Shown here piece by piece: positions 19,863 to 61,433 of a stretch of 64,000 bases of DNA. Every line of letters begins with the position of its first letter. Positions within the stretch are counted from its first letter, which is position 1. Location: positions 1 through 64,000 of the IMG/VR virus record IMGVR_UViG_3300034031_000046; one strand, written 5' to 3'. Source of the DNA: a virus. The position numbers and the translations under genes are program-made. The notes below the pieces were generated by a model, which was not told where the DNA came from, did no database searches, and worked only from the letters and a program-made list of their open reading frames with translations.

Positions 19863-19891
19863 TTTACCGGAGAGGGCGCCTATGTTAGAAT
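19863..19891 (+). promoter_or_regulatory. extended -10 promoter (TTTACC-17-TGtTAGAAT)
   Basis: TGn plus TAGAAT, with a 4/6 -35 match, just after the TerL-like stop. Confidence 0.45.
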
Positions 19892-19897
19892 GAGTTC

Positions 19898-20004
19898 AAC
19901 GCCGGTCCTCTCCTCCAACGCTCGTTCCCTCAACCGTTTTTAATCGCATAACCAAATTCAGGCCCGCAGCCGCCCTTTTCACGAAGGGCGGCTGCTTTGT
20001 TTTT
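19898..20004 (+). ncRNA. candidate short CU-rich transcript / leader (about 105 nt)
   Basis: Runs between the promoter at 19863 and the terminator at 19966. Contains CCUCUCCUCC (anti-SD-like). Confidence 0.3.
19966..20004 (+). terminator. rho-independent terminator
   Basis: Perfect 12-bp stem GCAGCCGCCCTT/AAGGGCGGCTGC, 6-nt loop, then TTTGTTTTT. Confidence 0.85.
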
Positions 20005-20040
20005 GGTTTCGTTCTCGGAGTCTTTCCATCGAGGTGCCCT

Positions 20041-36796: not shown

Positions 36797-36798
36797 CG

Positions 36799-38659: not shown

Positions 38660-38757
38660 CCTCCATCGGATAACCTCCGTGTCACAGGCCCTCACTCAAT
38701 AAGTCCCTCCCCTCCAGCAATCTGCACCAGCAATCTGCATTCGATGAGGCAAGCCGC

Positions 38758-43268: not shown

Positions 43269-43481
43269 TCACTCTCCGTAAAAGAAATTGATTGTGAATG
43301 CGAGTGCGGGATAAATACCCACCGCCAGCAGCCAGAGCCAGACTGGTGCATTTTCGCGGTCAGCGACAGCAATCGCATTTAGGACGGTGAACATCAGAAT
43401 CGGAAACCGTTGCGACTCGGTCAGGGTAAAGGCACGTTTCAGACGCTTTCTCACTTTAAAACCTCGCCCAGTCAGGGTCAT
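43269..43481 (-). CDS. small membrane protein (two TM; holin-like topology, function unknown)
   Basis: Hydrophobic segments FPILMFTVLNAIAVA and VWLWLLAVGIYPALAFTINFF. Confidence 0.45.
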   Translation of the reverse strand: MTLTGRGFKVRKRLKRAFTLTESQRFPILMFTVLNAIAVADRENAPVWLWLLAVGIYPALAFTINFFYGE

Positions 43482-43962
43482 TTAAAATTGCCTGCACCAT
43501 CGCATCTGTCACGAGGTCCCTGCCCCGCTTGACCGGCTTCTCGGTCGCGGAGGGATTTGATGCAGACGGTTTTGGCCCTGCCGCCTTCTGTGATTTACGG
43601 AGATGTGGCAGACGGTTCTCTCGTGTCTTGCGACGCGAGGCACGCACCAGTTCTCGCCGCCGCTCCGGCGTGACGACAATCGTCCCGTTACGGATTTCCG
43701 TCAGGATGGCGCGAATGATGTGCTTACAGAAATAGTCGGGATGGGAGGTAATGCGGGGCTCATAGCGTACACACCGGTAATTGAAGTCGGGACAATCGAT
43801 GCACTCGACTCGGCAGTCGTTAAGATTGCCCTCGATTTCGATCACCGGTGTGTACTCGTCTTCCTTTTCCTCGGTAAAGGACTTAGTGGTGAACATCGTT
43901 CGGTCGGACAATGCGTCGGTCCGCCGCACCTTGCGATGAATCTTGTACGGGTCATGCCCCAT
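43456..43962 (-). CDS. SWIM zinc-finger protein
   Basis: CIDCPDFNYRC..16..CKH fits the SWIM CxC..CxH pattern. AAGGAGG RBS. Confidence 0.6.
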   Translation of the reverse strand: MGHDPYKIHRKVRRTDALSDRTMFTTKSFTEEKEDEYTPVIEIEGNLNDCRVECIDCPDFNYRCVRYEPRITSHPDYFCKHIIRAILTEIRNGTIVVTPERRRELVRASRRKTRENRLPHLRKSQKAAGPKPSASNPSATEKPVKRGRDLVTDAMVQAILNDPDWARF

Positions 43963-44922: not shown

Positions 44923-45729
44923 TCAATTCACTGAGGCTGCCGATTCCAAAACGCTCTTCCACGTATGGCGACGCCCCAGCCCCTTGGTCGAGCGTTTTGG
45001 ATGGCGCCCTTCAAGGAAGTTTTCTTCGATTCTCAATGAGCGCTGGAGCAGTTCGGGATGCGCCTGATTGAGCCACACAATTTCACTCTTATGGGACGCC
45101 GGGCAAAAGAAACATGCCGATTTAACAGGGACGGGAAGACCGGCTGCTTTGATGATGTCAATGCACATGTCGCGATCGTACTGCCATTCAATCAGCGGAT
45201 ACCAATACTCGTATTTCTTGCAGGGGTTGGAACGACAGCAGATGCACTTCCCTTTCCCCGTCCCGTCTTGGCCGAATGTTCCGCGACACGAATCGCGCGG
45301 CGAAGCATCGTAGCCAATGACCTTCTTCACCTTAACGCCTGCGGCCCATGCCTCCCGTGCGGGTGCCCAGTTGTTACAGAATTTGTTCTGCGGCCCGACC
45401 TTCCACTTCAAAGAACAGGACTTCATGCCAAACGCCAGTGACGGCAGTGTCTCATTCGTCAGACACTCCGCCTCCAGACTTTCATGCTTGCTGGTCCGTG
45501 TAACCGTGACCACCTGAATCGGCGGCTGTGCGTGCGCTGCAAGATATTCCTGAATGATCGGAAGATAGGCATACGTCTCCGGCTTTTCTCCTTTCGTATC
45601 TGCAAACAAAATAAGGTCTGGGACGATTCCCCGCTTTACAAACTCAACGAGAATGGCGGTGCTGTCCACCCCCATGCCATAGGCCATCGTGAGAGGCGGG
45701 CGAATATCGATTAGCTGTAACTGGCTCAT
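44923..45729 (-). CDS. PAPS-reductase-family (PP-loop-like) protein
   Basis: MAYGMGVDSTAIL..LILFADTKGEKPETY (variant PP-loop and DTG-x-E-x-PET). Cys-rich C-terminus ..SACFFCP. Confidence 0.7.
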   Translation of the reverse strand: MSQLQLIDIRPPLTMAYGMGVDSTAILVEFVKRGIVPDLILFADTKGEKPETYAYLPIIQEYLAAHAQPPIQVVTVTRTSKHESLEAECLTNETLPSLAFGMKSCSLKWKVGPQNKFCNNWAPAREAWAAGVKVKKVIGYDASPRDSCRGTFGQDGTGKGKCICCRSNPCKKYEYWYPLIEWQYDRDMCIDIIKAAGLPVPVKSACFFCPASHKSEIVWLNQAHPELLQRSLRIEENFLEGRHPKRSTKGLGRRHTWKSVLESAASVN

Positions 45730-46877
45730 GACAATTGTTCTCCTTGGGTGTGCTCGATAAACCCGTCGATGAATTCGTTCGTCAGAATCTGAAAGTCCGA
45801 TTCGAGCAGGTTCACGCCATTGCCCTCTTTCAGGGACTCGGCAACGAGCTCGTCCAGATGCTGCCGAATCAAGGCCGCCAGTTTTGGACTGGGAGTGCGG
45901 TCCTTACCGATGGCATAAATTTCGGGTGATGCCTGCATCTTCTGATAAAGTGCCACCTTTTTTCGATAAATGCTTTCGGTCGTTTCCGCCCAGAGGCAGA
46001 ACTGTCCGATGTAATAATTGGCGTAGCCCAGAAACGGCTCGGTCCGCCGTTCGTGCTCCTCCTTTTCGCTGATTTTTTCGAGATAGATCATCACGGTAGC
46101 GATGCCCGTTCCGCTTTCCTTGAACGCGCCGGCTTCGATTTCTGAATACTCCCCAAACGTGAGCACGAACTTGAGGAAGTCTTTTTCGCGTTGGCCCGTG
46201 TTGCGAAGAAATCCGGGAGGTGCAATGGCGACCATGACACCGTGTGGACGAAGCAACTCATAGGCGCGCTCGATGTGCGTGATGTATGCAAGACGGTCAC
46301 CCTGCACCGAAAAAGGCGGGTTAATCAAAATCCGGTCGTAGGTATTGGGTGGCCCATCAAAGCTCAGAAAGTCGTCACCTGCGAGCGCGTAGCCTTTGCG
46401 CTCCAGCACCATGCGATTCAGTTCATCGATCTCGCAGATGTCGATTTGCTCCGGGCGAATTCCGGCTTCCACAAGGGCATCGACAATCGCTCCCTGACCG
46501 GCGGAGAATTCACCGAATCGTGCATCTTCGGGAACATAGTTCATAAATGCCAGTTCGACCATGCGGTCCACAACAGGGCGCTGCGTCGGAAAATAGGCCA
46601 GTGGATTCTTGGGAGGCATCTTGCCCGTTTCCTGCACAGCAGCCAGAAGCGGACGGGGGTCGAATGAAAAGAGATGCGCCTTTTTGCTGCCCTTCCATTT
46701 GCCGCCGATGCGCTCCAAGACCGCGTTCACCGCTTCATATTCTTTCCGGTCAAGTTCACCGCACAGCAGCTTCACCGAGTCCGGCGTGCATTCCACCTGA
46801 TGCCGCAGAATCTCCAGCACCGTGGGTAATACGGGTTCGCTCGCCATCGCAACATCGAATCGATTTACAGTTTTCAT
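45726..46877 (-). CDS. DNA methyltransferase (N6A/N4C class, NPPF motif)
   Basis: FGEFSAGQGAIVD (motif I) and ILINPPFS (motif IV). AGGAGA RBS. Confidence 0.75.
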   Translation of the reverse strand: MKTVNRFDVAMASEPVLPTVLEILRHQVECTPDSVKLLCGELDRKEYEAVNAVLERIGGKWKGSKKAHLFSFDPRPLLAAVQETGKMPPKNPLAYFPTQRPVVDRMVELAFMNYVPEDARFGEFSAGQGAIVDALVEAGIRPEQIDICEIDELNRMVLERKGYALAGDDFLSFDGPPNTYDRILINPPFSVQGDRLAYITHIERAYELLRPHGVMVAIAPPGFLRNTGQREKDFLKFVLTFGEYSEIEAGAFKESGTGIATVMIYLEKISEKEEHERRTEPFLGYANYYIGQFCLWAETTESIYRKKVALYQKMQASPEIYAIGKDRTPSPKLAALIRQHLDELVAESLKEGNGVNLLESDFQILTNEFIDGFIEHTQGEQLS

Positions 46878-46943
46878 AAGTGTCTCCTAGGTAGAGGGTT
46901 GGGCGGGACGCAATAGCCAGGGCTACTCCCCCGCTTCATCAGA

Positions 46944-46967
46944 ACGTAGGTAAAAGGGCATTTTGAC
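46944..46967 (-). promoter_or_regulatory. leftward promoter-like element A (GTCAAAATGCCC-N6-CTACGT on minus strand)
   Basis: Upstream of the methyltransferase operon (ATG 46877). The most divergent copy. Confidence 0.5.
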
Positions 46968-46984
46968 GGTGAGCGTTGCGGTTC

Positions 46985-47485
46985 TTAGGAGGACCGGAGA
47001 GGGATGACCTTTGCGGGAATAACAGCGCGCCCGATTTCAATAGATGCTCCGGCGCCCAGACGTTTCATGCGGTCGAACCAGTTTCCCAGTGTGGCCGCCT
47101 GCTCTTCGCTGAGGGCGTCGCAACAGACTTCTTCGGGCCGTCCCTGTGCGGAGAGGAGAACGCCTTCCAGTACGCGGATATGAGCCGCTGCGGGCTCGGC
47201 ATCGCGCGCCTCTCGCATCTCGGTAATCAAGTCCGTGAGTTGTTCGGTGCGGGTAGGGAGGCGAATCCCCGCGCGCCGGTCGAGCTCGTCGTCGTCGGCA
47301 AGTGTCACTGGAAAATCGATGGCGCCCGAGGGCGGCAAGAGTTCGCCCACAGATTCGCTATCGAAATCGCGCACGATCACAATGACGTTGGGGTTGTTGC
47401 TCAGAATGTCGGTTACGCTGCCGCCGCGCACTTCGACAATGATTCGCTGAACGGCTGGGGTTGCTTCCACAGATGTCGTATTCAC
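46985..47485 (-). CDS. hypothetical acidic protein (candidate anti-sigma partner, speculative)
   Basis: GTG start 6 nt after AAGGAG, 27 nt downstream of the sigma gene stop. Confidence 0.5.
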   Translation of the reverse strand: MNTTSVEATPAVQRIIVEVRGGSVTDILSNNPNVIVIVRDFDSESVGELLPPSGAIDFPVTLADDDELDRRAGIRLPTRTEQLTDLITEMREARDAEPAAAHIRVLEGVLLSAQGRPEEVCCDALSEEQAATLGNWFDRMKRLGAGASIEIGRAVIPAKVIPLRSS

Positions 47486-47512
47486 AGGAGTCTCCTTAAT
47501 CAATTCGGGTTG

Positions 47513-48082
47513 TTATTGGTTCATCAGACTTTTCATCGACGGTCCCATTCGCTTCGCCATCTCGGCACGGCCACGGCACAAACGGGACTTGACGGTGCCG
47601 ACGGGATAGCCGACACGGACGGAGATTTCTTTCACGTCCATACCCTGCACATGGTGCATCACGATGACTTCACGCTGCCAGTCGGGCAGACATTTGAGAG
47701 CATCATGGACGAGGAGGCGCAGACACTGGTGGTACTCATCGTTCTCCAGATCGTGGTGCACAGGCGGCGCGCTGTCTTCGACTTCGAGCACGGTCCCGTC
47801 GATGTCGGAACTATCGAGAGACAGCAGAATAATCGGTGCCGCTGGGTTACGTCCCCGCGTCTTGCGCAGGTAATCAATGACGATGTTGGATGCTGTCGTA
47901 TAAAGGTAGGACGCGACCGCGCGGTCACTCAGACTTTCCATCTCGTCTATCTTCTGCGAAAAGCGGATGAACGTTTCCTGCGTCACGTCTTCGGCATGGT
48001 CGGAATTACAGCCCATCTTTGTGACGTGAGTCAGGATGCGGCCATAAAATCGCTGGTGAATATCGGGGAATAGGGGGGACAT
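47513..48082 (-). CDS. ECF-type sigma-70 family RNA polymerase sigma factor
   Basis: Region 2 (AEDVTQETFIRF..YLYTTASNIVIDYLRK) and region 4 (LPDWQREVIVMHHVQGMDVKEISVRVGYPVGTVKSRLCRGR). AAGGATTATTT-ATG start. Confidence 0.85.
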   Translation of the reverse strand: MSPLFPDIHQRFYGRILTHVTKMGCNSDHAEDVTQETFIRFSQKIDEMESLSDRAVASYLYTTASNIVIDYLRKTRGRNPAAPIILLSLDSSDIDGTVLEVEDSAPPVHHDLENDEYHQCLRLLVHDALKCLPDWQREVIVMHHVQGMDVKEISVRVGYPVGTVKSRLCRGRAEMAKRMGPSMKSLMNQ

Positions 48083-48111
48083 AAATAATCCTTGGGCCTG
48101 AGCCGGTTTTT

Positions 48112-48127
48112 GTGCACTGCGGTGCAC
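48112..48127. promoter_or_regulatory. GTGCACTGCGGTGCAC 16-mer
   Basis: Exact copy between the minus-strand terminator at 48137-48162 and the sigma-factor start at 48082. Confidence 0.75.
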
Positions 48128-48136
48128 AACACAGGT

Positions 48137-48162
48137 AAAAATTAAAGCACCGCAACCGGTGC
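48137..48162 (-). terminator. rho-independent terminator (minus strand)
   Basis: GCACCG/CGGTGC stem, then TTTAATTTTT on the minus strand, after the stop of gene 48170-49153. Confidence 0.55.
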
Positions 48163-48169
48163 GGCTGAA

Positions 48170-49153
48170 CTACGCGATGCTCACTTGATTGGCGAGCCAA
48201 GTTTGCACCCAGCCCGCCGCAATGATGTCATGTTCATCCGTGCTGCCAGGTTCCAAGGTATAGAGCCAGATCATCGCGGCTTCCATCTCCTTAGTGATTT
48301 TATCTTCGGGAATGGTGCCCTCATAACCGTCGTCAGGGTTGTGAAGCACGACAGACTTTTCACCAGTTGCATTCAGAAGTTCAAGCCAGAACGCGCTGTA
48401 CTCTTCATAGGCTTTGTAATCGTGGGCGCGCAGACTCTTTTCTAGACGCCTCGCCGTATCGATGCCAACGAATTCGAGCAGGGCTGCAAAAGATTTTGTG
48501 TAGTGCTCTTCCCTGCCTATGTCCTCGGCCCATTGCCCGCATCCGGCATACCAGTCGAATTGGTCGCACCATCGAATGTGCCTGCACAAATCACAATCTT
48601 CGCGCAACGTGTTGTCATTGCACACGCTGCAATAAATCGTTTCGCCTTCTTGGATATTCCACGAGTCACCAAACGGGTTTGTATTCTCCTCGCCGTGAAG
48701 CGGAAGCGGCGCATCAAGCAAACGATAGTTAAGTGCCGCGATTTCTTCGTCGGAAAGCGGTTCTGGTTCTTTGTCTTTGGAATAGCCGCCCCTGTAGCCA
48801 ACAGGCGTAATCTTCGACCGGTCGAGCCAGAGCGGGGTCGGTTCGTCCCCAGTTATCCGGTCGATTCGTACTGTCGCATCGCCACCACCGCCGCTGTTAT
48901 GGAAGTAGCTCACTTCCTGCGCCTTGCTGTAAGCGAAATCCCAGTGGTTTGGACTCAAGCCGGTGCGGCCTTCGTGGTTATATTCTTCCATCGTCGTGAC
49001 TCCCCACGGTGCCCAGACACCGGGCTTCACTTCCTCGTAATGAATCGCGACAACGTGATGTGTTTCGGTGGGCCGATAGCCACCATAACCGGGAACGAGA
49101 TAAATCATAAAACTCCCAAGAGTGAGGTCGAAACGACCGTACTCCAAATTCAT
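48170..49153 (-). CDS. hypothetical protein
   Basis: 327 aa, tightly coupled to the ParB-like gene. Cys cluster CSVC..CDLC. Confidence 0.6.
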   Translation of the reverse strand: MNLEYGRFDLTLGSFMIYLVPGYGGYRPTETHHVVAIHYEEVKPGVWAPWGVTTMEEYNHEGRTGLSPNHWDFAYSKAQEVSYFHNSGGGGDATVRIDRITGDEPTPLWLDRSKITPVGYRGGYSKDKEPEPLSDEEIAALNYRLLDAPLPLHGEENTNPFGDSWNIQEGETIYCSVCNDNTLREDCDLCRHIRWCDQFDWYAGCGQWAEDIGREEHYTKSFAALLEFVGIDTARRLEKSLRAHDYKAYEEYSAFWLELLNATGEKSVVLHNPDDGYEGTIPEDKITKEMEAAMIWLYTLEPGSTDEHDIIAAGWVQTWLANQVSIA

Positions 49154-49154
49154 T

Positions 49155-50141
49155 TCAGGCCGCTTTCCGCAGTGGCTTTACCGACGGGTTGCCTTTCTTC
49201 GCGCGCCGGAATATCTGTTTGCGTGTCCTCTCCGTCGTCAGGTCCTTACGAACACGGGCCAAGTGTTTCTCCAGCAATTCGATTTCGAGAATCGTGCGGT
49301 CGAGGTCATTGCGGCTGAACGCCGACACCACGAGTTGGCAGCGTTTTGCGTCCCAGGTGTCGGAGCAGAGCTTCGTGATTTTAGCGAGCTTCTCTTCAAG
49401 CGTCTGGCGTGCTCGTGCCGCTCGCTTGGCCTGATAGGGTGTGAGCGCGGCAAGCGCAAAAAACGATTGTTGCTGCGTCATGGCCGCTTGTTGACGAATG
49501 GCACTCACGGCAGATCGAAGTGATGTCCCCTTTTGATAGGCCTTAAAAATCGTGTACTGCGCGTGACGCGGAACCGGCATCAGCCGGGACGCTGTCACGA
49601 TCTGATATGCCTGCCCGATGGAGATCTGCCCGCTATCAGGCTCTGGCGCGTTTTGCACCATGCCGCGCAGCATCGGGTGAAGTTCGAGCAGTGCCAGCCG
49701 GTAATCCACATAATCTTTTGTCTTGCCGATAACGGAGGCAATCGTTTCCGTGGTCCAGTCCAAGTTCTCCTTCAACATCTTCCGGTAGGCTTCCGCTTCT
49801 TCCATCGGCTGCGGGTCGTCGCGTTGCACATTTTCAATGACGCCCATCGTAAAGCACTTGCGCTTGGTCGCCTTGGTGATGGAAACCGGAAGCAGCTTGA
49901 GGCCCGCGATAAGGGCCGCGCGGTAGCGGCGTTCCCCGGCAATCAGCAGGTAGCGTCCGGTTGCTGGATTGTAGGAAAGTTTGAGCGGCTGCAAGATTCC
50001 AAACTCTTGGAACGATGCCGCGAGTTGCTGCAGATTACGAAAGCGCTTGCGGTGCTGGTCGATGTCGGGGTCAATCAGTTCTATGGGTAAATGCGGTTGT
50101 CCATCGATTAAGACAACGTGTGGATAAGAAATCGAATTCAC
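49155..50141 (-). CDS. ParB/Srx-family (ParB-like nuclease domain) protein
   Basis: FGILQPLKL..LLIAGERRYRAA..IENVQRDD matches ParB N-terminal boxes. GTG start with AAAGGAG upstream. Confidence 0.85.
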   Translation of the reverse strand: MNSISYPHVVLIDGQPHLPIELIDPDIDQHRKRFRNLQQLAASFQEFGILQPLKLSYNPATGRYLLIAGERRYRAALIAGLKLLPVSITKATKRKCFTMGVIENVQRDDPQPMEEAEAYRKMLKENLDWTTETIASVIGKTKDYVDYRLALLELHPMLRGMVQNAPEPDSGQISIGQAYQIVTASRLMPVPRHAQYTIFKAYQKGTSLRSAVSAIRQQAAMTQQQSFFALAALTPYQAKRAARARQTLEEKLAKITKLCSDTWDAKRCQLVVSAFSRNDLDRTILEIELLEKHLARVRKDLTTERTRKQIFRRAKKGNPSVKPLRKAA

Positions 50142-50172
50142 GTCGGGCTCCTTTCAAATTGGTTTCTTCACC

Positions 50173-50201
50173 GGTACGTAGATCGATGGGCATTTTGACA
50201 A
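50173..50201 (-). promoter_or_regulatory. leftward promoter-like element B (TTGTCAAAATGCCC-N6-CTACGTACC)
   Basis: 31 nt upstream of the ParB-like gene start. Confidence 0.6.
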
Positions 50202-50223
50202 GCGCGACACAGGTGAACGAAAA

Positions 50224-50234
50224 AGTACGGTCAA
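50224..50234 (-). repeat. near-match half-site (AGTACGGTCAA)
   Basis: One mismatch. Intergenic, next to promoter element B. Confidence 0.5.
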
Positions 50235-50272
50235 CAAACTGTCTGCACTGACCGTAGTTTTTCGCGCTGGAT

Positions 50273-50491
50273 TTAGAGAAGAGCTTTCAGACTGATTCGG
50301 CTGGATTCCAAGATGATGGCCGGCTGCTCGGCTACGATTTGAATGGTTGCAAATGCGTGACAAACTTCTATCGGTGTCATTTGTGCGGCCTTGACGCTGA
50401 CCATCGCTTTATCCGCAATGCCATGGATCACGAGTAATCGCTCTTCCGAGCTCCATGCGTCGCTGATGTTGTCAAATTCTTCAGGGGGCAT
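50273..50491 (-). CDS. hypothetical small protein
   Basis: 72 aa. AAGGAGA 4 nt upstream of the ATG. Confidence 0.55.
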   Translation of the reverse strand: MPPEEFDNISDAWSSEERLLVIHGIADKAMVSVKAAQMTPIEVCHAFATIQIVAEQPAIILESSRISLKALL

Positions 50492-50557
50492 CGTATCTCC
50501 TTTTGTTCGTCTTTATTGTGACAGAGTCCGGTCGAATCCGACCGCCCTTCGCTGTCC

Positions 50558-51685
50558 TCACGCCGCACGAAGCAACTTGCGCTTTTCCTTCTGGTCCTTC
50601 GCTTCCTCTTTCTGGGCGTTCTGTGCCATGAGCCCGCGATATCGCTCGCGTAATTCCTCCGGCTCCGTATAGTCAATCTCCAAGCCGACTGCCGCTGCGA
50701 CACGCTTGCGCACCGTGCAGAGCAGCTTTGCTTCGGCTACCGTAGGAACACAGGTCGGCCAGCCCTTGGTATAGAGCAGGTGCGATGGAATCAATGATTC
50801 GGCATCCTCGCGCTCTTTGGCTTTTTCCTTGGCTCTATCGAGGCGGATGCTAAGTTCAGTGCTCAGCAGCATCGGAGAAACGTCACCAAGCCAGGTATTC
50901 TCCTGAAAACTGAATGTCGATCGCGCCTCCAGTTCGACCATCTCCCGATAGACATCGTGATTGTCGGGACAACTGGCGGACGCCGCCATATCTCCTTTCG
51001 AGGACATGATGCAGAAGGAACACGAAACGCGCGAGGTGCCGTAAATAACATATGCCTCGTGCAGTGGAAAAGACTTTTCTTCCAGATAGCTGAAAATGTC
51101 ATCTTTGAGCCAGCCTGCAATCGGGTGCCAGTCAAGGCCGCGCGTGCCGTGCGTTATGCTGGTGAGCTTGCTTTGCTCTTTGGCCGTTGGTGCTTTGGAG
51201 CGACCGGTACTTTCATCGCGCCGAATGCCTGAAACGGAAAGAATGGTCTGGCCGGGGAACCGTCGAATCAGTTCACGACAAATCACCGCCGTCTTGAGTT
51301 CACTGGTGCAGAACCGCATCGAGGGCGTGCTCCATGGCAGGATGAGCTTGACGCATTCCAGCGCCGCATACCGTGCGACGTTATTATCCCAGCGCACCAG
51401 AAAGCGATCCATCATATCGCCAGCAGCGCGCCGTACAACAATCAGTTCCAGCCCGAGCGCTGTCGCAAGACGTTCGCACGTTGGCAGCGAGTCGCGCCAT
51501 TCGATTCGTCCAAGGTCGCTGTGAACAAGAACGCGCGGGCCGCGATGCCCGACGCTGTCCAGATAGTCATTGGTCGCAAACGCCGCAGCACAACTGTCCT
51601 TCCCGCCGGAAACGCCGATGCAGACTGGTGCTCCCTCATGGAGCAAAGTTTCAATTTCGGGCGTCGATTCGATAGGTAAATTCAT
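50558..51685 (-). CDS. DndC-like / PAPS-reductase-family PP-loop ATPase
   Basis: IGVSGGKDS PP-loop, RFCTSELK, SGIRRDES and a C-terminal SCSFC. ATG with GAGGT upstream preferred over the TTG at 51727. Confidence 0.75.
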   Translation of the reverse strand: MNLPIESTPEIETLLHEGAPVCIGVSGGKDSCAAAFATNDYLDSVGHRGPRVLVHSDLGRIEWRDSLPTCERLATALGLELIVVRRAAGDMMDRFLVRWDNNVARYAALECVKLILPWSTPSMRFCTSELKTAVICRELIRRFPGQTILSVSGIRRDESTGRSKAPTAKEQSKLTSITHGTRGLDWHPIAGWLKDDIFSYLEEKSFPLHEAYVIYGTSRVSCSFCIMSSKGDMAASASCPDNHDVYREMVELEARSTFSFQENTWLGDVSPMLLSTELSIRLDRAKEKAKEREDAESLIPSHLLYTKGWPTCVPTVAEAKLLCTVRKRVAAAVGLEIDYTEPEELRERYRGLMAQNAQKEEAKDQKEKRKLLRAA

Positions 51686-51733
51686 AAGCAACCTCGGGTT
51701 GATTCCCACAGTTTTGAGTACGATCAATGGATT

Positions 51734-54550: not shown

Positions 54551-54571
54551 GATTCCCCCTGTAAATTCATC

Positions 54572-54600
54572 GGTACGTAGATCGGCGGGCATTTTGACAA
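54572..54600 (-). promoter_or_regulatory. leftward promoter-like element C
   Basis: 21 nt upstream of the ATG at 54550. Near-identical to B and D, including the flanking CGATGAA. Confidence 0.6.
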
Positions 54601-54612: not shown

Positions 54613-55434
54613 CTAAAGCATCGGAGGCCGCTGCGTCGGGAAGTTCAGGCGATCAAGCAGCGCCGTGAGTCCTTCGGTCGTGGCGAAGCAAATCCCCTCG
54701 TGTTCTTTCTGTCCTGCGTTCGCGGTTTCCCATCCCTGCGCGCGAAGCGGGTGATAGTAGAGGCCGAGGCGGTCCGGTGAGGGTGGGACATAGCGCGTTA
54801 CGATACGCCCGTTCCAGTGCCAGAAGTCTTTGCCCCAGTGCCACAGCAACTCGTTGTCTCCGCGCGTGCACAGATCGGACGGCTGGCGCAGGAACCAGTG
54901 GTAGCGATGGTCTTTGGTGAGCGAGGTGTACCAGTCGCTATACCACGTCACGGTCGTGATGCTGGGCACCACGTCAATCGAGCGCAGATGGAATACGGTC
55001 TTGAGCAGATGGGACACGGCATCGAGCACACCCTCTTTTCCCATCCTCCCGCAGGAGAAAGATTCGACCGGCTCTTCATCGATGATAACCAGCCATTCGT
55101 CGCCGCCTTCCACCTGGTCGATGAAGCAGACGTTGCGCCAGTAGAACGGCTGTCCCACGCACCAGTAGGGGCTCTGGAGAATCCGGTCCACCATCAGGCC
55201 GATATCTGTGTACTCCGCGTTGCGAAACGAGTCCCGCGTGAACGGTGGGTCGCTAGCCTTACGAATCGATGGTTTGCTCATGCCGATGCGGAACCACGCT
55301 TCGACCAACTCGGAGCGACGGTTGGAAGAGGGTGTTTCGGTATCGGGGACAGACGCCAGAACCGGGGCCGTTACCGACGCTGCAGGCGCTGTTGGAGCGA
55401 GGTCATTTTTCAGTTGGGCAATTGATGTAATCAT
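54613..55434 (-). CDS. hypothetical Trp-rich protein
   Basis: First gene after promoter element D. AAGGAG 8 nt before the ATG (MITSIAQ). Confidence 0.55.
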   Translation of the reverse strand: MITSIAQLKNDLAPTAPAASVTAPVLASVPDTETPSSNRRSELVEAWFRIGMSKPSIRKASDPPFTRDSFRNAEYTDIGLMVDRILQSPYWCVGQPFYWRNVCFIDQVEGGDEWLVIIDEEPVESFSCGRMGKEGVLDAVSHLLKTVFHLRSIDVVPSITTVTWYSDWYTSLTKDHRYHWFLRQPSDLCTRGDNELLWHWGKDFWHWNGRIVTRYVPPSPDRLGLYYHPLRAQGWETANAGQKEHEGICFATTEGLTALLDRLNFPTQRPPML

Positions 55435-55462
55435 TGAAATTGTCTCCTTGGTTTTCTTCATC

Positions 55463-55491
55463 GGTACGTAGGAAGGCGGGCATTTTGACAA
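55463..55491 (-). promoter_or_regulatory. leftward promoter-like element D
   Basis: 28 nt upstream of the ATG at 55434. Divergent from the rightward consensus promoter at 55508. Confidence 0.6.
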
Positions 55492-55507
55492 AGCGCGAAA
55501 AAATTGC

Positions 55508-55536
55508 TTGACAGCACGCGAGGCCGCCTCTATAAT
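55508..55536 (+). promoter_or_regulatory. sigma-70 consensus promoter TTGACA-17-TATAAT
   Basis: Perfect -35 and -10 hexamers with a 17-nt spacer, in the divergent control region. Confidence 0.75.
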
Positions 55537-55542
55537 TGAAGA

Positions 55543-55698
55543 CGTATAGCAAGCGCGTATAGCTGTTTTAATCGATTTCGTTTCACCTCGTCGTTACTCC
55601 ATTCAGGTCAAGGCATCATGAAATTTTAATTTTCAACTCGTAATTGCATAATTGGCCCGCCGCCGCCCTTTCACTTCGAAGGGGCGGTTTTTTGTTTT
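55543..55698 (+). ncRNA. candidate short leader / small RNA (about 155 nt) from the consensus promoter to the terminator
   Basis: No ORF above 3 codons with an RBS. More AT-rich than its surroundings. Bounded by the promoter at 55508 and the hairpin plus T-run at 55663-55698. Confidence 0.45.
55663..55698 (+). terminator. rho-independent terminator
   Basis: CCGCCCTT..AAGGGGCGG stem followed by TTTTTTGTTTT. Confidence 0.75.
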
Positions 55699-55707
55699 CC
55701 AGTTGTT

Positions 55708-55723
55708 GTGCACTGCGGTGCAC
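55708..55723. promoter_or_regulatory. GTGCACTGCGGTGCAC 16-mer
   Basis: Exact copy 10 nt after the leader terminator and upstream of the late structural genes. Flanks extend the symmetry (GTTGTGCAC..GTGCACACAAC). Confidence 0.75.
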
Positions 55724-55988
55724 ACAACGCCCGACAAACCGGCGAGGCCACGGGTACAGGCTGCGGGGCCAACGACCTTCTCGTGCTGAACAGCACTCCA
55801 AGGGTTCGGGCCGACGTTCAAATGGTGGGACCTATATTCCATTGGTTTGAACACCGCACTGGGAACGGTTGATGCTGACCGTTCCCATGAGAGCAAAACC
55901 CACCGCTGAAAGAGGCGCTTTTGCGAGCGTCCTTTCGTCGGTGGGTTTCTTTTTGAAGTAGGGGCGGGCACAGCCCGCCGGGTGCATC

Positions 55989-56918
55989 ATGAACGCAAAA
56001 GACGGCGTTCTTCAGGCTTTCGAATGGTTCGTTCCTATCGTGAAAAGCGAGCCCATCGGTGACGATGGGCGCGGCCCCATTCGCGTCTATGGCGTGTTCA
56101 CCGACGAGAGCGCCGATCTGGAGAACGACATCGTTAAAGCGGCAACCAACCCGAATGCGTTTCAATGCGCGCGGCACGGTCAGATGCGCTTCAACTACAA
56201 CCATCGCAACAAGATCGTCGGTGATGTGCACGCGGTGCGCTTTTTGACGAACGCGGCAGCGCAGCGCAAGTACGGTCACTTCGGCAAAACGTTCAAGGGC
56301 ATCGTCGGCGAGGTCGAGGGTATTGTTCATCCTCTCACCGAGGAAGCGTCCGAGGACCTCAAGGATGTTCGCCACTTGCTCAAGTGCCAGCGCGAGGTCG
56401 GGACCGCCGTCGGGTTCTCCCTTCAGGGCAAGGCACGCACACAGTCGCACCCGACGCAGCCGGGCTATCGCCTCGCCTATCCCACGTTCGTGCCCCTGAT
56501 TTCGATCGCTCCTGTTCCCAAAAACATGAACACCGTCTGTCTGGCGAAGGGTATCGACCTCAGTCAGATGGAGGATCAATCGATTCTGGAACTCGACAGC
56601 GGACCGGGAGAGATGGACGGCAACGGCGATCTTCCCGCGATTCTCTGGGTCGCGAAAGCGATGGACGTATCGGGCATCAAGGCCGATGGCGGCGTCACGG
56701 GCGGCGATTCCCTCAAGCTCGAATCGAGTGGGAGCGGGGTCGTAAACGCAGTGCGCGATGGCGGACATCTTCGCTCCTGCGCGCGCTGTGGTGTGCCGCT
56801 CGATCACAAACACAAGCATTGCCACCAGTGTGGCGAACGCTATCAATCGTCGGCGGAACTCCTGCGCACAATCGCAGGCGCTGCCAATGCCCGTACCCGG
56901 TGTGAATGCCGGAGTTAG
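55989..56918 (+). CDS. prohead serine protease (HK97/S78-like) with C-terminal zinc ribbon
   Basis: IRVYGVFTDESADLENDIV, FNYNHRNKIVGDV and VGFSLQGK resemble the His and Ser blocks of S78 proteases. Followed by scaffold and capsid genes. CARC..CHQC tail. Confidence 0.55.
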   Translation: MNAKDGVLQAFEWFVPIVKSEPIGDDGRGPIRVYGVFTDESADLENDIVKAATNPNAFQCARHGQMRFNYNHRNKIVGDVHAVRFLTNAAAQRKYGHFGKTFKGIVGEVEGIVHPLTEEASEDLKDVRHLLKCQREVGTAVGFSLQGKARTQSHPTQPGYRLAYPTFVPLISIAPVPKNMNTVCLAKGIDLSQMEDQSILELDSGPGEMDGNGDLPAILWVAKAMDVSGIKADGGVTGGDSLKLESSGSGVVNAVRDGGHLRSCARCGVPLDHKHKHCHQCGERYQSSAELLRTIAGAANARTRCECRS

Positions 56919-57020
56919 AGCAGGACTGAATTTGTATCCAGAGCGCGCTGAGTGCTGTTCGTCGCAAGGCGGAGAGAGAGCAGTGGCCGCTTGAAGATAA
57001 AAACGCAAGGAGGCAAATCT

Positions 57021-58097
57021 ATGCCAAACGAATTACAGAATGGCGGAGCGGATAATTCATTCGATCTCGACCAATGGGAAAAGGAAGCGGACGCCATCAC
57101 CGACCCGGCAGCGCGCAGCCTGTTCCAGAAGGGCGTCGATCTGGTGAAGGGCTTCGTCTCGAAGGCTGATAAAACCAAGTCTGCCAACGCCAGCGAAGAG
57201 GAGGACAAGTCCAAGAAGTCCAAAAAGGATGACGAGGACGAAGAAGGCACCGGCGACGGTGACGCCACTCCTCTGCCTGCCGATACCACCGAGGGCGATG
57301 GTGACGGTGACGGGGAAGTCGATGGTGATGAAGGTGACGGCGATGGCGATGGCGAGCCAGACGACGATGAAGAGTTGTCGGATGAAGCGCCCCCCCCACG
57401 CAACATCAAGAAGGGTCACGATCTTGATGAAAACGATGTGGACAGCCTTCTCGCTGACGACCTCGATCTCAGCGATGATGACTTTCTTCCACAGGAAGCG
57501 ATCAACGTCACCGAGCTCGTCAAAAGCGTCGAGCTTCATCTGGTCCAGTCACAAGAACGCGAGGGCCGCCTCGAAGCGGCGCTGGGCGAAGCGCTCAAGG
57601 CCAATGCGCAGATCATGGAGCAAAACGCCACGTTGCTCAAGTCCTTCGATCTCTTCAACGGCGAAATGACCGAAATCAAAAAATCGGTCGGTGAGCAGCT
57701 TGAACTGCTCCAGGAAGAGGTCACTCTGAACAAAGCATTCGGCGACAAGATCGAAACGCTCAGCATGACCCCGCACCCGTTCGGCACGCCGCGCGGCAAA
57801 GGGAAAGGCGAGCATCTCCTGAGCAAGGGCGTGGACGAGAACTTCGAACCACCGTCCAACGGAGGCGGTTCGGGCAGCATGGGCGGCCTCAACTTCAAGC
57901 GCCGTCACGGCCTGACGGACGGACAGTTCGTCACGGGACTGGGTGCCTATGTCCGTGACAATCCGCACAACGACCTCGGCCTGAGTTCCGACACGCTGAT
58001 GAAGGCGGTGGCACTCGCACCCGAAGAGCGCGGCGAACAAATGTATAAAGCGGCGTGTATCGGTCTGGGTATCGGTTTCGTTGCTGAAAACGAATAA
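57021..58097 (+). CDS. scaffolding protein (putative)
   Basis: AAGGAGG RBS. Acidic (DGDGDGE) low-complexity region plus a coiled-coil segment. Lies between protease and capsid genes. Confidence 0.55.
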   Translation: MPNELQNGGADNSFDLDQWEKEADAITDPAARSLFQKGVDLVKGFVSKADKTKSANASEEEDKSKKSKKDDEDEEGTGDGDATPLPADTTEGDGDGDGEVDGDEGDGDGDGEPDDDEELSDEAPPPRNIKKGHDLDENDVDSLLADDLDLSDDDFLPQEAINVTELVKSVELHLVQSQEREGRLEAALGEALKANAQIMEQNATLLKSFDLFNGEMTEIKKSVGEQLELLQEEVTLNKAFGDKIETLSMTPHPFGTPRGKGKGEHLLSKGVDENFEPPSNGGGSGSMGGLNFKRRHGLTDGQFVTGLGAYVRDNPHNDLGLSSDTLMKAVALAPEERGEQMYKAACIGLGIGFVAENE

Positions 58098-58233
58098 CGC
58101 CACGCGCTCGCGCTAAATCACGCACTCGCGGCAGCACCAGCCATTCTGGTGTTGCCCTCTTTTCATCCTCCAACGCTCCACCTCCCACCTATGAACCTCT
58201 CGAAGAAAAAAAGTAACCCCGGAGGATGAACCA

Positions 58234-59766
58234 ATGTCGAATCCCGTAGCAATTGGATTAGAACACTTTGTCGAGGAGTACCTGCTCGACCCCGAGATCG
58301 CCGACCACGGCGATCGCGCACTTGAAGTTATCGAACGTCGCCTGCAGCGCCACGCTGGCGGAGGTATCGCCGAAATCGCGAAAGCGATGGACATTTCGGG
58401 CGTAAAAGCGGATGGCGGAGTTACTGGAGCCGACGCCCTCAAATTGGAGGATTTGCTCCCCGTCGTAACCAGCGCCACAATTTCCGCGCAGGACTTTGCG
58501 CCCGCATGGAATAAAGTCAACAAGCGCGCGGCCACCTCGGACCGCGTGGAACACACGCTCATCACCGACCTCGGTGGCGAACCCGGTCTTGGCTTCGTGA
58601 ACCCCGGCTCACTCAGCGGTGACGGCGAAGACAACGATCCCGACTTGGAACGCGTTCACCAGAACATCCGCTGGTACGGACATCCTTACAGCACCTCGCT
58701 GCCCGCGACTCTGGTCACGGCGCAGACGATGTCGGGTAAGGCAGTTGCCGGTGGTGTTGACCGCATCAACGAATACGCGGCGCTCAACCAGACGATTATC
58801 GATCTGAACATCCAGCATTGGCATGGCAACAACAGCATCACCAAGCTGGAAGCGGATGGCTTTCTTGCCCAGACGCGCGCCAAGCACGATCGCCACAACA
58901 AGATTTTGCGCTTCAACTGCAACGGCAAGCCGCTGGACTTGAAGAACCTTCCTGACATCGCCGCGATGAACTATGAAAATGGTGCCGTTGCGACCGATTT
59001 CTGGTGGGGGCCAAAGGTTCTTGCGGACATTGAAAAGTCCCTGTTGCCACATGGCCGCTTGAACATGGGCGAGGAAACCGACCTGCTCAACATGCCGGAG
59101 AACTTCCTCGTGAAGAAACTCGGCGGGCAGACCGGTCGCGTGAAAACCAATCGCGACTTGCACCTCGACCCGTACTTGAAGCGTCCGCGCTCGGCGCCTT
59201 CGCGCGCCAACGCTCCGACCAAGCCGTCGGCGGTCGTCGCTTCGTTGGAAGCCGATAACACCGGTAACGTCCTCGATGGCAACAAGCTCAAGGCGGATGG
59301 CCCGTACTACTACTCGGTGCAGGCCGTCGGTGTGAAGGGCCGCAGTGATGCGCGCGTTTCCGCCGGGTCGGTGAGCCCCAACGGCAGCCAGAAGGCCAAG
59401 CTGGTTATCACCAACGCGCACGCTTCGACCCTGCGCTTCGAAATCTTCCGTGGCCCCACGGCAGACATCGCGACGCACAAGTATCTGACTGCGGTCACGG
59501 CCAACGGCATCGCCAATGGCGCGGACCAGACGTTCTACGACGACGGTGAATTCATTCCCGGTTGCTCGACGGGCGTTTTGATGTGCAACACGCAGCAGCC
59601 GGACGGCACGGGCCTGTGGCTCGCTCGCCAGTTGCTGCCGATCTCGCGTTACGACTTGCCTCGTTACGTGTTCAACTTCCCGTCGATCTGGCTCGCGGGC
59701 GTGTGCTTCCAGTTGCGCGCTCCGCAGTTCCAGATCATCGTGGAAAACATCGGTCACATCGACTAA
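58234..59766 (+). CDS. major capsid protein (putative)
   Basis: 510 aa with GGAGGA RBS. Follows protease and scaffold and is followed by a strong terminator. Its N-terminal peptide is shared with the protease C-terminus. Confidence 0.65.
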   Translation: MSNPVAIGLEHFVEEYLLDPEIADHGDRALEVIERRLQRHAGGGIAEIAKAMDISGVKADGGVTGADALKLEDLLPVVTSATISAQDFAPAWNKVNKRAATSDRVEHTLITDLGGEPGLGFVNPGSLSGDGEDNDPDLERVHQNIRWYGHPYSTSLPATLVTAQTMSGKAVAGGVDRINEYAALNQTIIDLNIQHWHGNNSITKLEADGFLAQTRAKHDRHNKILRFNCNGKPLDLKNLPDIAAMNYENGAVATDFWWGPKVLADIEKSLLPHGRLNMGEETDLLNMPENFLVKKLGGQTGRVKTNRDLHLDPYLKRPRSAPSRANAPTKPSAVVASLEADNTGNVLDGNKLKADGPYYYSVQAVGVKGRSDARVSAGSVSPNGSQKAKLVITNAHASTLRFEIFRGPTADIATHKYLTAVTANGIANGADQTFYDDGEFIPGCSTGVLMCNTQQPDGTGLWLARQLLPISRYDLPRYVFNFPSIWLAGVCFQLRAPQFQIIVENIGHID

Positions 59767-61342: not shown

Positions 61343-61433
61343 GGCGACTACACGTTATTTGTAAAGATACAGCACCGGCTTTGAATCGAGGCCGGTGCCC
61401 CATTCCCATTCCCCTCTCCCGAGGACACCAATC

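Follow-up and report, generated by a model that had tools for sequence, protein, structure and literature searches.

The window analysed here, a 64,000-nt stretch of a phage genome, contains a head-morphogenesis operon on the plus strand (55989..59766) that consists of a gene for a prohead protease homolog (55989-56918), a scaffold-like gene (57021-58097) and the major capsid gene (58234-59766). This order of protease, scaffold and capsid genes had been proposed in a first-pass annotation and stands as proposed: the protease ATG lies at 55989, and the capsid protein matches phrog_752 (5.5e-34). The gene on the other side of the unit described below (54613-55434, 273 aa) is encoded on the minus strand, which places the unit in a divergent intergenic region of 554 nt. 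The earlier annotation had overlooked that this gene is divergent.

The intergenic region carries a host-type promoter on the plus strand (55498..55536), in which an UP-like A6 tract (55498-55503) just 5' of the -35 is followed by TTGACA (55508-55513), a 17-nt spacer and TATAAT (55531-55536), with a predicted transcription start at ~55543. As claimed earlier, the TTGACA-17-TATAAT at 55508-55536 is a 12/12 match to the sigma-70 consensus, scored with an E. coli-like consensus that may not be the one used by the phage's host. It is the sole perfect match in the 64-kb window and the sole site with at most two mismatches; sites of at least 10/12 on either strand number only four. By our estimate, chance alone would give only ~0.005 such 12/12 matches per window at 58% GC. 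Back to back with this rightward promoter, and ~25 nt 5' of the divergent 273-aa gene, lies a leftward, phage-specific promoter-like motif, TTGTCAAAATGCCC-N6-CTACGTACCGATGAAG (55456..55491, minus strand), which is ECF-like (GTCAAA..16 nt..CGTA). Near-identical copies are found at 54565-54600 and 50166-50201 and a looser one at 46956-46967, all of them on the minus strand and 5' of leftward genes. A second TTGACA, at 55485, was rejected as a promoter, because it belongs to this leftward motif read on the opposite strand.

Downstream of the promoter lies a relatively AT-rich, non-coding leader (55543..55661, plus strand) that ends at a terminator hairpin, T1. Its GC content is 0.35-0.40 (0.40 for 55543-55658) versus 0.58 for the window, and its only open reading frame is an MKF mini-ORF, ATG-AAA-TTT-TAA (55618-55629), both as the first-pass annotation had described. 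The leader contains direct repeats of CGTATAGC (55543-55550 and 55556-55563), a U-rich box, GTTTTAATC (55565-55573), and AATTGCATA (55642-55650); both the U-rich box and AATTGCATA are found again in the paralogous units at 19.9 kb and 69.6 kb. In the predicted fold (z -1.1) the terminator is the only stable part and the rest of the leader has next to no structure, which argues against the earlier suggestion of a put-like RNA at this position. No antiterminator helix pairing with the 5' half of the terminator appeared when the leaders were folded without the terminator 3' half, and no riboswitch or other Rfam family was found at threshold in the whole window, the unit or four related phages. 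A riboswitch, attenuator or put-like reading was rejected on these grounds, namely the lack of alternative helices or structure and of an Rfam family at threshold. Likewise, the first 38 nt after the -10 contain no TAnnnT pause element in any of six units, but only partial strings of the TATAGC, GATAGC and TATTTG type.

T1 (55662..55699, plus strand) is a canonical intrinsic terminator with an 11-bp GC-rich stem (55662-55688), a 5-nt loop and the U tail TTTTTTGTTTT (also given as UUUUUUGUUUU), in which 10 of 11 positions are U. With a dG of -20.1 kcal/mol it heads the list of terminators for 50-64 kb, in agreement with the GC hairpin previously placed at 55663-55698. The unit does not lie directly in front of the capsid module, as had been stated; a highly structured segment of ~290 nt (55700-55995, MFE -138.6, z -5.9), which contains a second intrinsic terminator, T2, intervenes. 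Within this segment, a structured part of the 5' UTR (55762..55887, plus strand) is made up of a branched helix (55762-55858) and a 9-bp hairpin (55861-55886), and has neither a paralog in the genome nor a credible ORF. T2 (55895..55954, plus strand) has a long interrupted stem (55895-55948, AAAACCCACCG...CGGUGGGUUU) and the tail UUUCUUUUU (to 55954, also given as TTTCTTTTT), with a dG of -35.9, and ends 35 nt 5' of the protease ATG. A further hairpin, GGCGGGC-ACA-GCCCGCC (55963..55979, plus strand), has a distal AGGGG on its 5' side and the start codon of the protease gene on its 3' side. Neither T2 nor the structured RNA after T1 had been noticed before. The Rfam LOOT RNA (RF03000) aligns over its full model length at 55856-55978, overlapping T2, with 23.8 bits against a threshold of 46.4 and an E-value of 0.013-0.027 that holds for the short searched stretch only. 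LOOT membership was rejected, as the score is below the gathering threshold and there is no hit in the whole-window search at threshold or in the four relatives. Farther downstream there are more terminator-like hairpins, and most of the gaps between genes of the structural operon are taken up by hairpins.

Eight nucleotides after the T1 tail lies an 18-bp palindrome, TGTGCAC-TGCG-GTGCACA (TGTGCACTGCGGTGCACA, 55707..55724). The first-pass annotation had recorded it as a 16-mer at 55708; it is indeed present, but it is not unique: at least 10 copies are scattered over 82 kb, identical in the arms and different in the centre. Several copies lie 11-30 nt 5' of start codons on either strand, including those of the large terminase, ECF sigma and tail tube genes, and the arrangement of a terminator followed ~10 nt on by the palindrome is repeated 5' of the ECF sigma gene (48111-48128). 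The members of this palindrome family are probably bound by a phage regulator that acts as a dimer.

Paralogs of T1 together with its 5' flank occur at two other places in the same genome, before the portal gene (c19) and before the tail-tube gene (c69), so that with the unit described here (c55) there are three T1-type copies in total, all preceding morphogenesis genes (portal, head and tube). These paralogs, too, are absent from the earlier annotation. Unit c19 (19863..20006, plus strand) lies between the large terminase gene and the genes for a 124-aa protein and the portal. It comprises an extended -10 promoter, TTTACC-17-TAGAAT (TG present), a CU-rich leader, GTTTTTAATCGCATAA and a terminator at ~19966-20006 (GCAGCCGCCCUUU..AAGGGCGGCUGC, tail UUUGUUUUU, dG -26.9). 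Promoter, leader and homologous terminator are present in both c19 and c55, while the promoters themselves are not homologous; c69 (69644-69685) is a module without a promoter of its own. The three paralogs share ~55-100 nt, the U-rich box GUUUU(U)AAUC occurs in all three, and the paralogous modules sit within co-directional operons.

Relatives were found only by an exhaustive HMMER search, followed by contig look-ups. The protease and capsid proteins of the window are homologous to the products of the first and third operon genes in L124, L126, L128, L130 and L133, and four of these (L124, L128, L130 and L133), with capsid proteins 30-41% identical, share the layout. Each of the four has the best sigma-70-like promoter of its locus, a leader of 45-80 nt up to the hairpin and a canonical terminator before a protease-scaffold-capsid operon, and in these phages as in the window the unit occupies a divergent intergenic region. 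L124 has a perfect TTGACA-17-TATAAT and a terminator with a dG of -27.8 (UUUCUGUUUUU), which lies 35 nt before its ATG and is thus the positional equivalent of T2. The 11/12 promoter and the 13-bp terminator of L133 are each the best of the locus, as is the 10/12 promoter of L128, which is paired with a 12-bp terminator; L130 combines a 10/12 promoter with an 18-bp terminator. In L128, paralogous terminators at the leader and before the tube gene have been kept independently. Before the tube gene of L128, as at c69, the tail of the terminator runs straight into a strong Shine-Dalgarno sequence and the ATG. The exception is L126, with a 977-nt spacer and only a weak promoter candidate. A 391-aa ORF called across the L124 promoter and terminator was rejected: protease homology does not begin until residue 63, and the ATG assigned to the ORF overlaps the -10.

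What is conserved is the arrangement, not the sequence. Beyond short motifs there is no sequence conservation between the leaders of different phages, no aligned motif is found in the promoter spacers of the window and L124, and the AT-richness of the leader is not kept in the relatives. The short motifs common to the leaders, (T/G)ATAGC at +2, a U-rich box and GGCC(C)AAG before the stem, could be due to chance. Palindromes also occur near some of these units: of the eight copies of TCGAGTACTCGA in L128, two lie a short way 5' of the capsid promoter, and L130 has a perfect 20-bp palindrome after the terminator; none comparable was seen in L124 or L133, and a scan of IMG/VR with the palindrome pattern gave single chance matches only. 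A second assembly, L002, has an identical intergenic region and hence offers no variation to analyse. Other searches added little: neither the DNA nor the capsid protein had a match in the GenBank phage collection, IMG/VR scans with the capsid protein and two capsid-protein alignments gave no relatives, a JGI metagenome scan returned one 1.9-kb fragment, and a word-index protein search returned only the query itself. The phages of this deeply divergent clade are uncultured and have genomes of 90-140 kb, and some have been binned with Abditibacteriaceae MAGs; this family is a lead to the host of the L130 type.

Transcription of the virion genes from a separate downstream promoter had been named earlier as an outcome that would speak against terminator gating. 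The sequence scan found no plus-strand site of at least 10/12 in the 17.5 kb of structural genes downstream (55989-73470), and the leftward phage-specific motif is absent from the plus strand of the same stretch. For L124, L128, L133 and T2 of the window, the gap between terminator and start codon is 20-63 nt, which is too short for another promoter; read-through in these cases is therefore obligatory. In the absence of a competing antiterminator helix in any leader, a factor acting in trans is the simplest way past the terminator.

The search for such a factor agrees with the earlier remark that no recognisable Q, N or other antiterminator is visible: scanning of ~45 proteins and of precomputed Pfam lists gave no match to the Q, N, NusG/RfaH-like or p7-like families. 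No Q gene (Pfam PF03589 or PF06530, PHROG Q families) lies immediately upstream, where the neighbour is divergent and without a family match, and the sole Q-like trace is a match of ECF sigma factor region 4 to phrog_79 with an E-value of 0.08. A conserved SWIM-like zinc protein is encoded beside the cassette in three relatives; neither this protein nor the divergent 273-aa neighbour found a match in Pfam, PHROG or PDB sequence searches, and a single-sequence AlphaFold model of a candidate factor has a pLDDT of 41. The SWIM-like zinc protein (43456-43962) and the phage ECF sigma factor (47513-48082) are regarded as candidate factors.

The occurrence of the layout in five distantly related phages (the window phage and four relatives) makes it likely that the unit acts as a switch holding back the expression of virion genes. 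The explanation to which we give an even chance is that the unit is the point at which transcription enters the virion-gene block of this large, uncultured phage, and that a terminator gates this entry. The host sigma-70 RNA polymerase would start at the consensus promoter (~55543), transcribe the ~120-nt unstructured leader and by default stop at T1, giving an RNA of ~155 nt. A polymerase that continued would pass the 18-bp palindrome and transcribe 200 nt of structured RNA before reaching T2, whose distance from the protease ATG is 35 nt; further downstream it would meet more terminator-like hairpins, including the T1 paralog before the tail-tube gene. The virion genes would be expressed only once termination is suppressed. 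We infer efficient termination in the phage's actual host and temporal regulation of read-through. The likeliest means would be a dedicated, phage-encoded antitermination factor, presumably made from earlier transcripts, that renders the polymerase terminator-resistant and either acts processively or recognises the 5' flank (AATTGCATA..GGCCCGCnGCCGCCC) that is conserved among T1-type modules.

The same elements can be read in other ways. The terminators might be constitutive and partial, doubling as 5' UTR elements, so that a fixed fraction of polymerases passes and no dedicated antiterminator is involved; the hairpins would then stabilise the read-through mRNA, the U-tract would serve as a landing site for ribosomes or S1, and timing would be set elsewhere, for example by a palindrome-binding protein. 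A hairpin and U-tract just before strong ribosome-binding sites, as in the tube genes of the window phage (c69) and L128, also fit a role in mRNA stability or translation, and the hairpins in most intergenic gaps of the structural operon, the dispersed palindromes that adjoin the unit in the window, L128 and L130 and the failure to find an antiterminator homolog all agree with it. This reading is nevertheless unlikely, as the full canonical features (11-18 bp GC-rich stems followed by 7-10 U) are needless for an mRNA stabiliser, two terminators in tandem would cost most transcripts, and the pairing of consensus-strength promoters with strong terminators in five phages looks like an on/off gate rather than a trim. 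The first-pass annotation had offered a stand-alone small RNA as its alternative, and the anatomy is indeed that of an sRNA gene: a promoter of its own, no ORF, an AU-rich unstructured body and a U-tailed terminator, in three paralogs with ~55-100 nt in common and with C/U-rich tracts that resemble anti-Shine-Dalgarno seeds. The 155-nt RNA, the ~105-nt RNA of c19 and perhaps a processed c69 RNA would on this account act in trans, and their position before virion genes would be incidental. We consider it quite unlikely. Nor can it account for everything, since transcription has to pass the terminators to reach the capsid genes: the capsid genes of L124, L128 and L133 have no other promoter, and a role in trans leaves the conserved position unexplained. 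Moreover, no seed is conserved, since the leader sequence differs between phages, c69 has no promoter of its own, there is no Rfam match, and the best duplex with 130 phage translation-start regions (-34.8 kcal/mol) is matched by shuffled leaders, whose values span -31.7 to -40.0.

Two further readings would move the switch away from the terminator. A repressor or roadblock protein bound at TGTGCAC-N4-GTGCACA, and at analogous palindromes in relatives, could block or activate transcription at many genes, this one included, and leave T1 as a backup only. The invariant arms and variable centre of at least 10 copies are what a DNA site for a dimer would show, and the terminator-palindrome pair 5' of the ECF sigma gene, the two copies of TCGAGTACTCGA just upstream of the L128 capsid promoter and the 20-bp palindrome of L130 all point in this direction. 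The palindrome is found after the terminator in the window and L130 but upstream of the -35 in L128, and was not seen in L124 or L133; a roadblock also leaves the conservation of canonical terminators unexplained. As the real switch it is very unlikely, and it is compatible with terminator gating rather than exclusive of it. Finally, in phages such as T7 and T4, transcription primes or activates replication at origins, and a strong promoter with a short transcript through an AT-rich stretch could do the same here. The AT-rich leader in a 58% GC genome, the direct repeats of CGTATAGC and the position at a divergent strand switch would suit an origin. AT-richness is not a conserved feature of the relatives' leaders, there is no clear GC-skew turning point at the unit, the paralogous modules lie inside co-directional operons and the feature that is conserved is the link to the capsid operon, all of which make an origin extremely improbable.

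Should read-through prove to be regulated, a new factor or mechanism of antitermination must exist in the clade. We put forward, tentatively and as a possibility below even, that an undescribed antitermination system times the virion genes in a new clade of large phages. Its factor, unrelated to Q, N, p7 and NusG, would recognise either the terminator-proximal module (AATTGCATA..GGCCCGCnGCCGCCC and hairpin; GGCC(C)AAGG and hairpin in relatives) or the initially transcribed (T/G)ATAGC, and would switch the host polymerase, once started at a consensus promoter, from making a short RNA to transcribing the operons for portal, head and tail. For finding this putative factor, the three paralogous terminator modules provide a defined RNA/DNA target, and the element is compact and directly testable as a reporter.

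To our knowledge, terminator-gated late operons are textbook knowledge only in lambdoid phages (Q, N) and a few others (HK022 put, Xp10 p7), and the phages studied here, a deeply divergent and uncultured clade in which the searches found no known antiterminator, have conserved that logic. The lambdoid late cassette consists of the Q gene, PR', a sigma-dependent pause element, the 6S RNA, tR' and the late genes (bioRxiv 10.1101/651190). Like it, the unit has a strong sigma-70 promoter directly 5' of and co-oriented with virion genes, an intrinsic terminator expected to yield a short non-coding RNA, and one long late operon with further terminators downstream that need read-through. Unlike it, the window unit lacks a TAnnnT pause element, has no Q homolog among the proteins scanned, has a divergent neighbour and two tandem terminators 200 nt apart, and repeats its terminator module before the portal and tail-tube genes, in a genome of ~139 kb with an ECF sigma factor gene of its own and no trace of lambdoid descent. 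The match to PR'-6S-tR' proposed earlier thus holds for the promoter and terminator logic, which recurs in four relatives, but not for the pause element and Q gene; because these two are missing, the unit is not a lambda Q cassette, and a PR'-tR'-like logic is plausible.

In lambda N/nut and rrn-type antitermination, as could be the case here, a leader site between promoter and terminator loads a termination-resistant complex, and several copies are present per genome, as with nutL and nutR. On motif inspection, the U-rich box GUUUU(U)AAUC, which has similar strings in L124 and L128 (CGUUUUUAACA in L128), loosely resembles boxA, whose consensus we take to be GCUCUUUAACAA. This likeness is weak and absent from L130 and L133, there is no conserved boxB-like hairpin, and no N-like protein was identified. 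HK022 put consists of two stable stem-loops. Put and other cis-acting antiterminator RNAs (e.g., EAR) share with the unit a promoter-proximal non-coding leader before phage-operon terminators; in the window the leader upstream of T1 is unstructured (z -1.1), and structured RNA follows T1. The RfaH/ops element, presumably GGCGGTAGCGTG, is matched at positions 2-8 by GCGGTAG in the L128 leader, while the window and L124 share the TAGC core only, and the gene lists contain no NusG-family Pfam match.

The PeSL motifs of T4-like phages flank variable early genes and have been discussed as recombination substrates (PMC2839356, PMC4122927). Like c19 and c55, they are repeated intergenic combinations of a host-type promoter and a terminator-like stem-loop whose copies are more alike than the surrounding genes, but the copies in the window phage precede conserved morphogenesis genes, and the capsid-module unit is positionally conserved across divergent phages. 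In Xp10, the small phage protein p7 makes the host RNA polymerase terminator-resistant for late genes (PMC4513864, PMC6624301). No p7 homolog was detected in the window phage; the resemblance to p7 and other antiterminators that bind RNA polymerase would lie in a modified host polymerase reading the late genes, as it does in this lytic phage with no nut- or qut-type site required.

A promoter matching an E. coli-like sigma-70 consensus, which may not be that of the host, at 12/12 positions lies on the plus strand upstream of the protease-scaffold-capsid operon, with TTGACA at 55508-55513, a 17-nt spacer and TATAAT at 55531-55536. This is the sole match with at most two mismatches from the consensus in the 64-kb window, and counting both strands only 4 sites attain 10/12 there. 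An A6 tract stands immediately 5' of the −35 element, and transcription is predicted to start at about 55543. From that point to the terminator T1, the leader holds ATG-AAA-TTT-TAA (55618-55629) as its only ORF, has a GC content of 0.40 versus 0.58 for the window, and shows no structure beyond the terminator when its fold is compared with shuffled sequence (z −1.1). T1 (55662-55699, plus strand) has a stem of 11 pairs at 55662-55688, a dG of −20.1 kcal/mol and the tail TTTTTTGTTTT, and is the top entry of the terminator list for its region. The perfect promoter, the leader free of ORFs save for this MKF-type mini-ORF, and the strong terminator noticed in the first-pass annotation are thus borne out, and its palindrome (55707-55724) and protease start (55989) are both correct. 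The promoter-leader-terminator feature is real.

The unit had also been placed directly in front of the capsid module, which does not hold for T1, as structured RNA and a second terminator intervene. The neighbouring gene on the 5' side (54613-55434, 273 aa) runs leftward on the minus strand, which makes the 554-nt gap a divergent control region. Within it, the fold of 55700-55995 is much more stable than that of shuffled sequence (MFE −138.6, z −5.9), and the structured part ends in T2, a second canonical terminator (55895-55954, plus strand, tail UUUCUUUUU, dG −35.9) located 35 nt 5' of the protease ATG. The very structured 5' UTR stretch 55730-55990 (z −5.9) is without a paralog in the genome. 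A full-length match to the Rfam LOOT RNA (RF03000) at 55856-55978 is sub-threshold (23.8 bits, threshold 46.4), and no such match is present in any relative.

An environmental metagenome (ENA ERZ27253121) yielded the roughly 139-kb contig to which the window belongs; the intergenic region is identical in a second assembly (Logan SRR10954971). Similar phages are absent from the GenBank phage collection and none were found in IMG/VR; an exhaustive HMMER search, with the capsid protein as query, brought up relatives at 30-41% identity, five of which (L124, L126, L128, L130, L133) have contigs long enough for the upstream region to be visible. The same divergent junction lies directly 5' of the operon in 5/5, with gene homology confirmed. 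In L124 the top site over 17.6 kb is a perfect TTGACA-17-TATAAT with an A-tract 5' of it, and then come a leader of about 65 nt and a terminator (dG −27.8, UUUCUGUUUUU) 35 nt from the true ATG. L133 has TTGACA-17-TAAAAT (11/12, locus-best), a leader of about 45 nt, and the strongest terminator of the locus, whose 13-bp stem contains 11 GC pairs; the ATG is 20-70 nt further on. L128 has TTGACG-18-TAAAAT, the sole site of at least 10/12 in its locus, a leader of about 80 nt, and a 12-bp terminator 63 nt from the start, and L130 has TTGACG-18-TACAAT, a leader of about 65 nt, an 18-bp terminator and, 3' of this, a perfect 20-bp palindrome. In L126, where the promoter candidate is weak and the spacer is 977 nt, a terminator-like hairpin (dG −26.3, UUUUCUUUU) lies about 80 nt 5' of the ATG. 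The leaders of the window phage and its relatives share no alignable sequence; since the capsid proteins are also only about 30% identical, the recurrence of the layout reflects an architectural constraint and not inherited sequence. By a rough estimate, chance would put a locus-best promoter-like site within the right 200-500 nt and in the right orientation in about 1% of loci. Judged from these sequences, the promoter-leader-terminator architecture is conserved. Separately, L130-type capsid-module contigs (L134, L135 and also L131) occur in the bins of two Abditibacteriaceae MAGs that are independent of each other (DASWNL01, JANMKN01), making this family a possible host lead for the L130 branch.

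T1, with about 25-100 nt of 5' flank, has two paralogs in the genome, sharing the U-rich box GTTTT(T)AATC and the motifs AATTGCATA and GGCCCGCnGCCGCCC. One (19863-20006, plus strand) is 3' of an extended −10 promoter, TTTACC-17-TAGAAT with TG; the large terminase gene (18321-19841) flanks it on one side and the 124-aa and portal genes (20514-22958) on the other. The second paralog (about 69534-69685) is flanked by an 828-aa gene and by the gene for the tail tube (PF18906). As their neighbours are portal, head and tail tube, all three copies are 5' of morphogenesis genes. L128 likewise has paralogous terminators, each with GGCC(C)AAGG 5', in the leader of its capsid operon and immediately 5' of the gene for its tail tube; their independent retention hints that the terminator sequences themselves are recognised. 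In L126, an IS605-family OrfB/TnpB (Cas12f-like) gene (12553-13758, minus strand) is inserted just 5' of the tail-tube gene, the position of the terminator module in the window and L128.

The best reading of the unit is a cis-regulatory design that depends on read-through. The distance from U-tract to start codon is only 20-63 nt in L124, L128, L133 and at T2, no plus-strand promoter of at least 10/12 occurs in 55989-73470, and a 36-nt motif found upstream of leftward genes is absent from the plus-strand structural block; transcription of the capsid genes must therefore cross terminators. No helix competing with the terminator is found in any leader, nor a useful leader peptide or Rfam aptamer, indicating that relief of termination must come in trans. 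Given further terminator-like hairpins in the structural block (58130, 60183 and the 69.6-kb paralog), an economical way past them would be processive modification of RNA polymerase or a factor recognising the conserved T1-type module. Efficient termination in the real host, timed read-through and a dedicated antitermination factor are all inferred.

Other explanations deserve weighing. The hairpins might terminate constitutively but only in part, and serve in addition to stabilise mRNA or enhance translation, consistent with the strong ribosome-binding site directly 3' of the U-tract before both tube genes. Stand-alone small RNAs could be the relevant product, as the three paralogs of the module would allow, but seed conservation and a target signal are lacking and the obligatory read-through is left unexplained. 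A primer transcript of the origin type is poorly supported. A palindrome-binding regulator might be the real switch, which is compatible with the read-through design and not exclusive of it. A different palindrome, TCGAGTACTCGA, is dispersed in L128, with 8 copies in 17.5 kb (5504, 5521, 6499, 7864, 12739, 13112, 13496, 14359), two of them in tandem shortly 5' of the capsid promoter and some in terminator loops. In the window phage, the 18-bp palindrome TGTGCAC-N4-GTGCACA is dispersed in at least 10 copies over 82 kb (3549, 14892, 18293, 27954, 36316, 44885, 48111, 52995, 55707, and 69544, which is L118:16770), with invariant arms and a variable centre (TGCG, TGCA, CACA, CGCA). Several copies stand 11-30 nt 5' of a start codon, on one strand or the other, and the genes concerned include large terminase, ECF sigma and tail tube. 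This pattern is more in keeping with a DNA site bound by a dimeric regulator than with an RNA hairpin, and a global phage regulator probably acts at the palindrome.

Two proteins are candidate factors. A conserved protein of 147-200 aa with a SWIM-like CxC...CxH zinc motif (SFT..CxCPDF..R..CKH) has its gene no more than two genes away from the cassette in L128 (4919-5521), L124 (4687-5130) and L130 (3808-4404); in the window its gene lies at 43456-43962 (minus strand). It has no Pfam, PHROG or PDB match, and its single-sequence structure model is poor (pLDDT 41). An ECF-type sigma factor (47513-48082, minus strand; Sigma70_r2 4.9e-12, r4_2 1.6e-14; phrog_1740), whose gene is preceded by a terminator and a copy of the 18-bp palindrome, is common to the window and L133, where the homolog is in the divergent operon (4461-5093, minus strand, 3.7e-14). 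Family and PDB sequence searches found no link to antitermination for either protein. The leftward motif, TTGTCAAAATGCCC-N6-CTACGTACCGATGAAG with the core GTCAAA..16 nt..CGTA, is found on the minus strand 5' of four leftward genes (55456-55491, 54565-54600, 50166-50201, 46956-46967) and looks like a phage-specific ECF-type promoter. The leftward operon (44923-51727, minus strand) contains two PAPS-reductase-like genes (44923-45729, 50558-51727), a ParB_N/HTH_ParB gene (49155-50141) and a DNA methyltransferase-like gene (45726-46877), which may form a DNA-modification module. A 1055-aa protein (27835-31002, plus strand) has an InPase domain (2.3e-40), which also occurs in large proteins that phages carry in the virion or inject, and weak matches to sigma-70 regions 2 (0.004) and 3 (0.0002); a palindrome copy lies 120 nt into its ORF.

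Further elements recur in the genome. The 10-mer GTACGGTCGA has 13 exact copies versus about 0.16 expected, and its family (16, 4047, 4434, 8395-8416, 10208, 24935, 27733, 44909, 51734 and others; about 31 sites in 82 kb) appears singly or as the inverted repeat AGTACGGTCGA..TCGACCGTACT(C)TTT, typically directly 3' of stop codons or shortly 5' of start codons; it is a second family of intergenic hairpins or putative binding sites. Extended −10 promoters (TGnTAnAAT) lie at 15815-15823, 19883-19891 and 24890-24898, the latter two being homologous (CCTrTGyTAnAATGAG..CAACGCCG) with inverted repeats flanking each −10. A 599-nt gap (36200-36798) contains TTGACA-18-CACAAT (36228-36257), a degenerate palindrome 60 nt 3' of it (36316-36333) and an uncalled 118-aa ORF (36440-36796). 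Tracts rich in C/U and poor in G (CCUCC or CCCUCCC type) precede the ribosome-binding site in most 5' UTRs of the plus strand (for example 27733-27834, 31003-31061, 38660-38757, 58098-58233, 61343-61433); these tracts could be rut-like or anti-Shine-Dalgarno-like.

Among known systems, N/nut shares with the unit only a loose boxA-like U-rich box, and RfaH/ops yields leads only, namely 7 matching nt in L128 and a TAGC core common to the window and L124. A put-type RNA is contradicted by the unstructured leader. The PeSL cassettes of T4-like phages, which flank variable early genes, are likewise repeated promoter and stem-loop modules (PMC2839356, PMC4122927). The closest analogue is the lambdoid Q cassette, comprising the Q gene, PR', a sigma-dependent pause element, a terminator and the late genes (bioRxiv 10.1101/651190). 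The unit has the promoter, the terminator and the late-gene position, but a pause element is absent from 6/6 units, the upstream gene is divergent, and no Q homolog was found among the proteins tested by family searches or in Pfam lists. It would thus work in the manner of PR'-tR' without belonging to that family: from the lambda reading of the first-pass annotation, the PR'-tR'-like logic is the best explanation available, with about an even chance of being right, any regulation of read-through is putative, and the specific Q mechanism is not supported. The unit would then be an undescribed phage clade's variant of a terminator-gated late-gene system.
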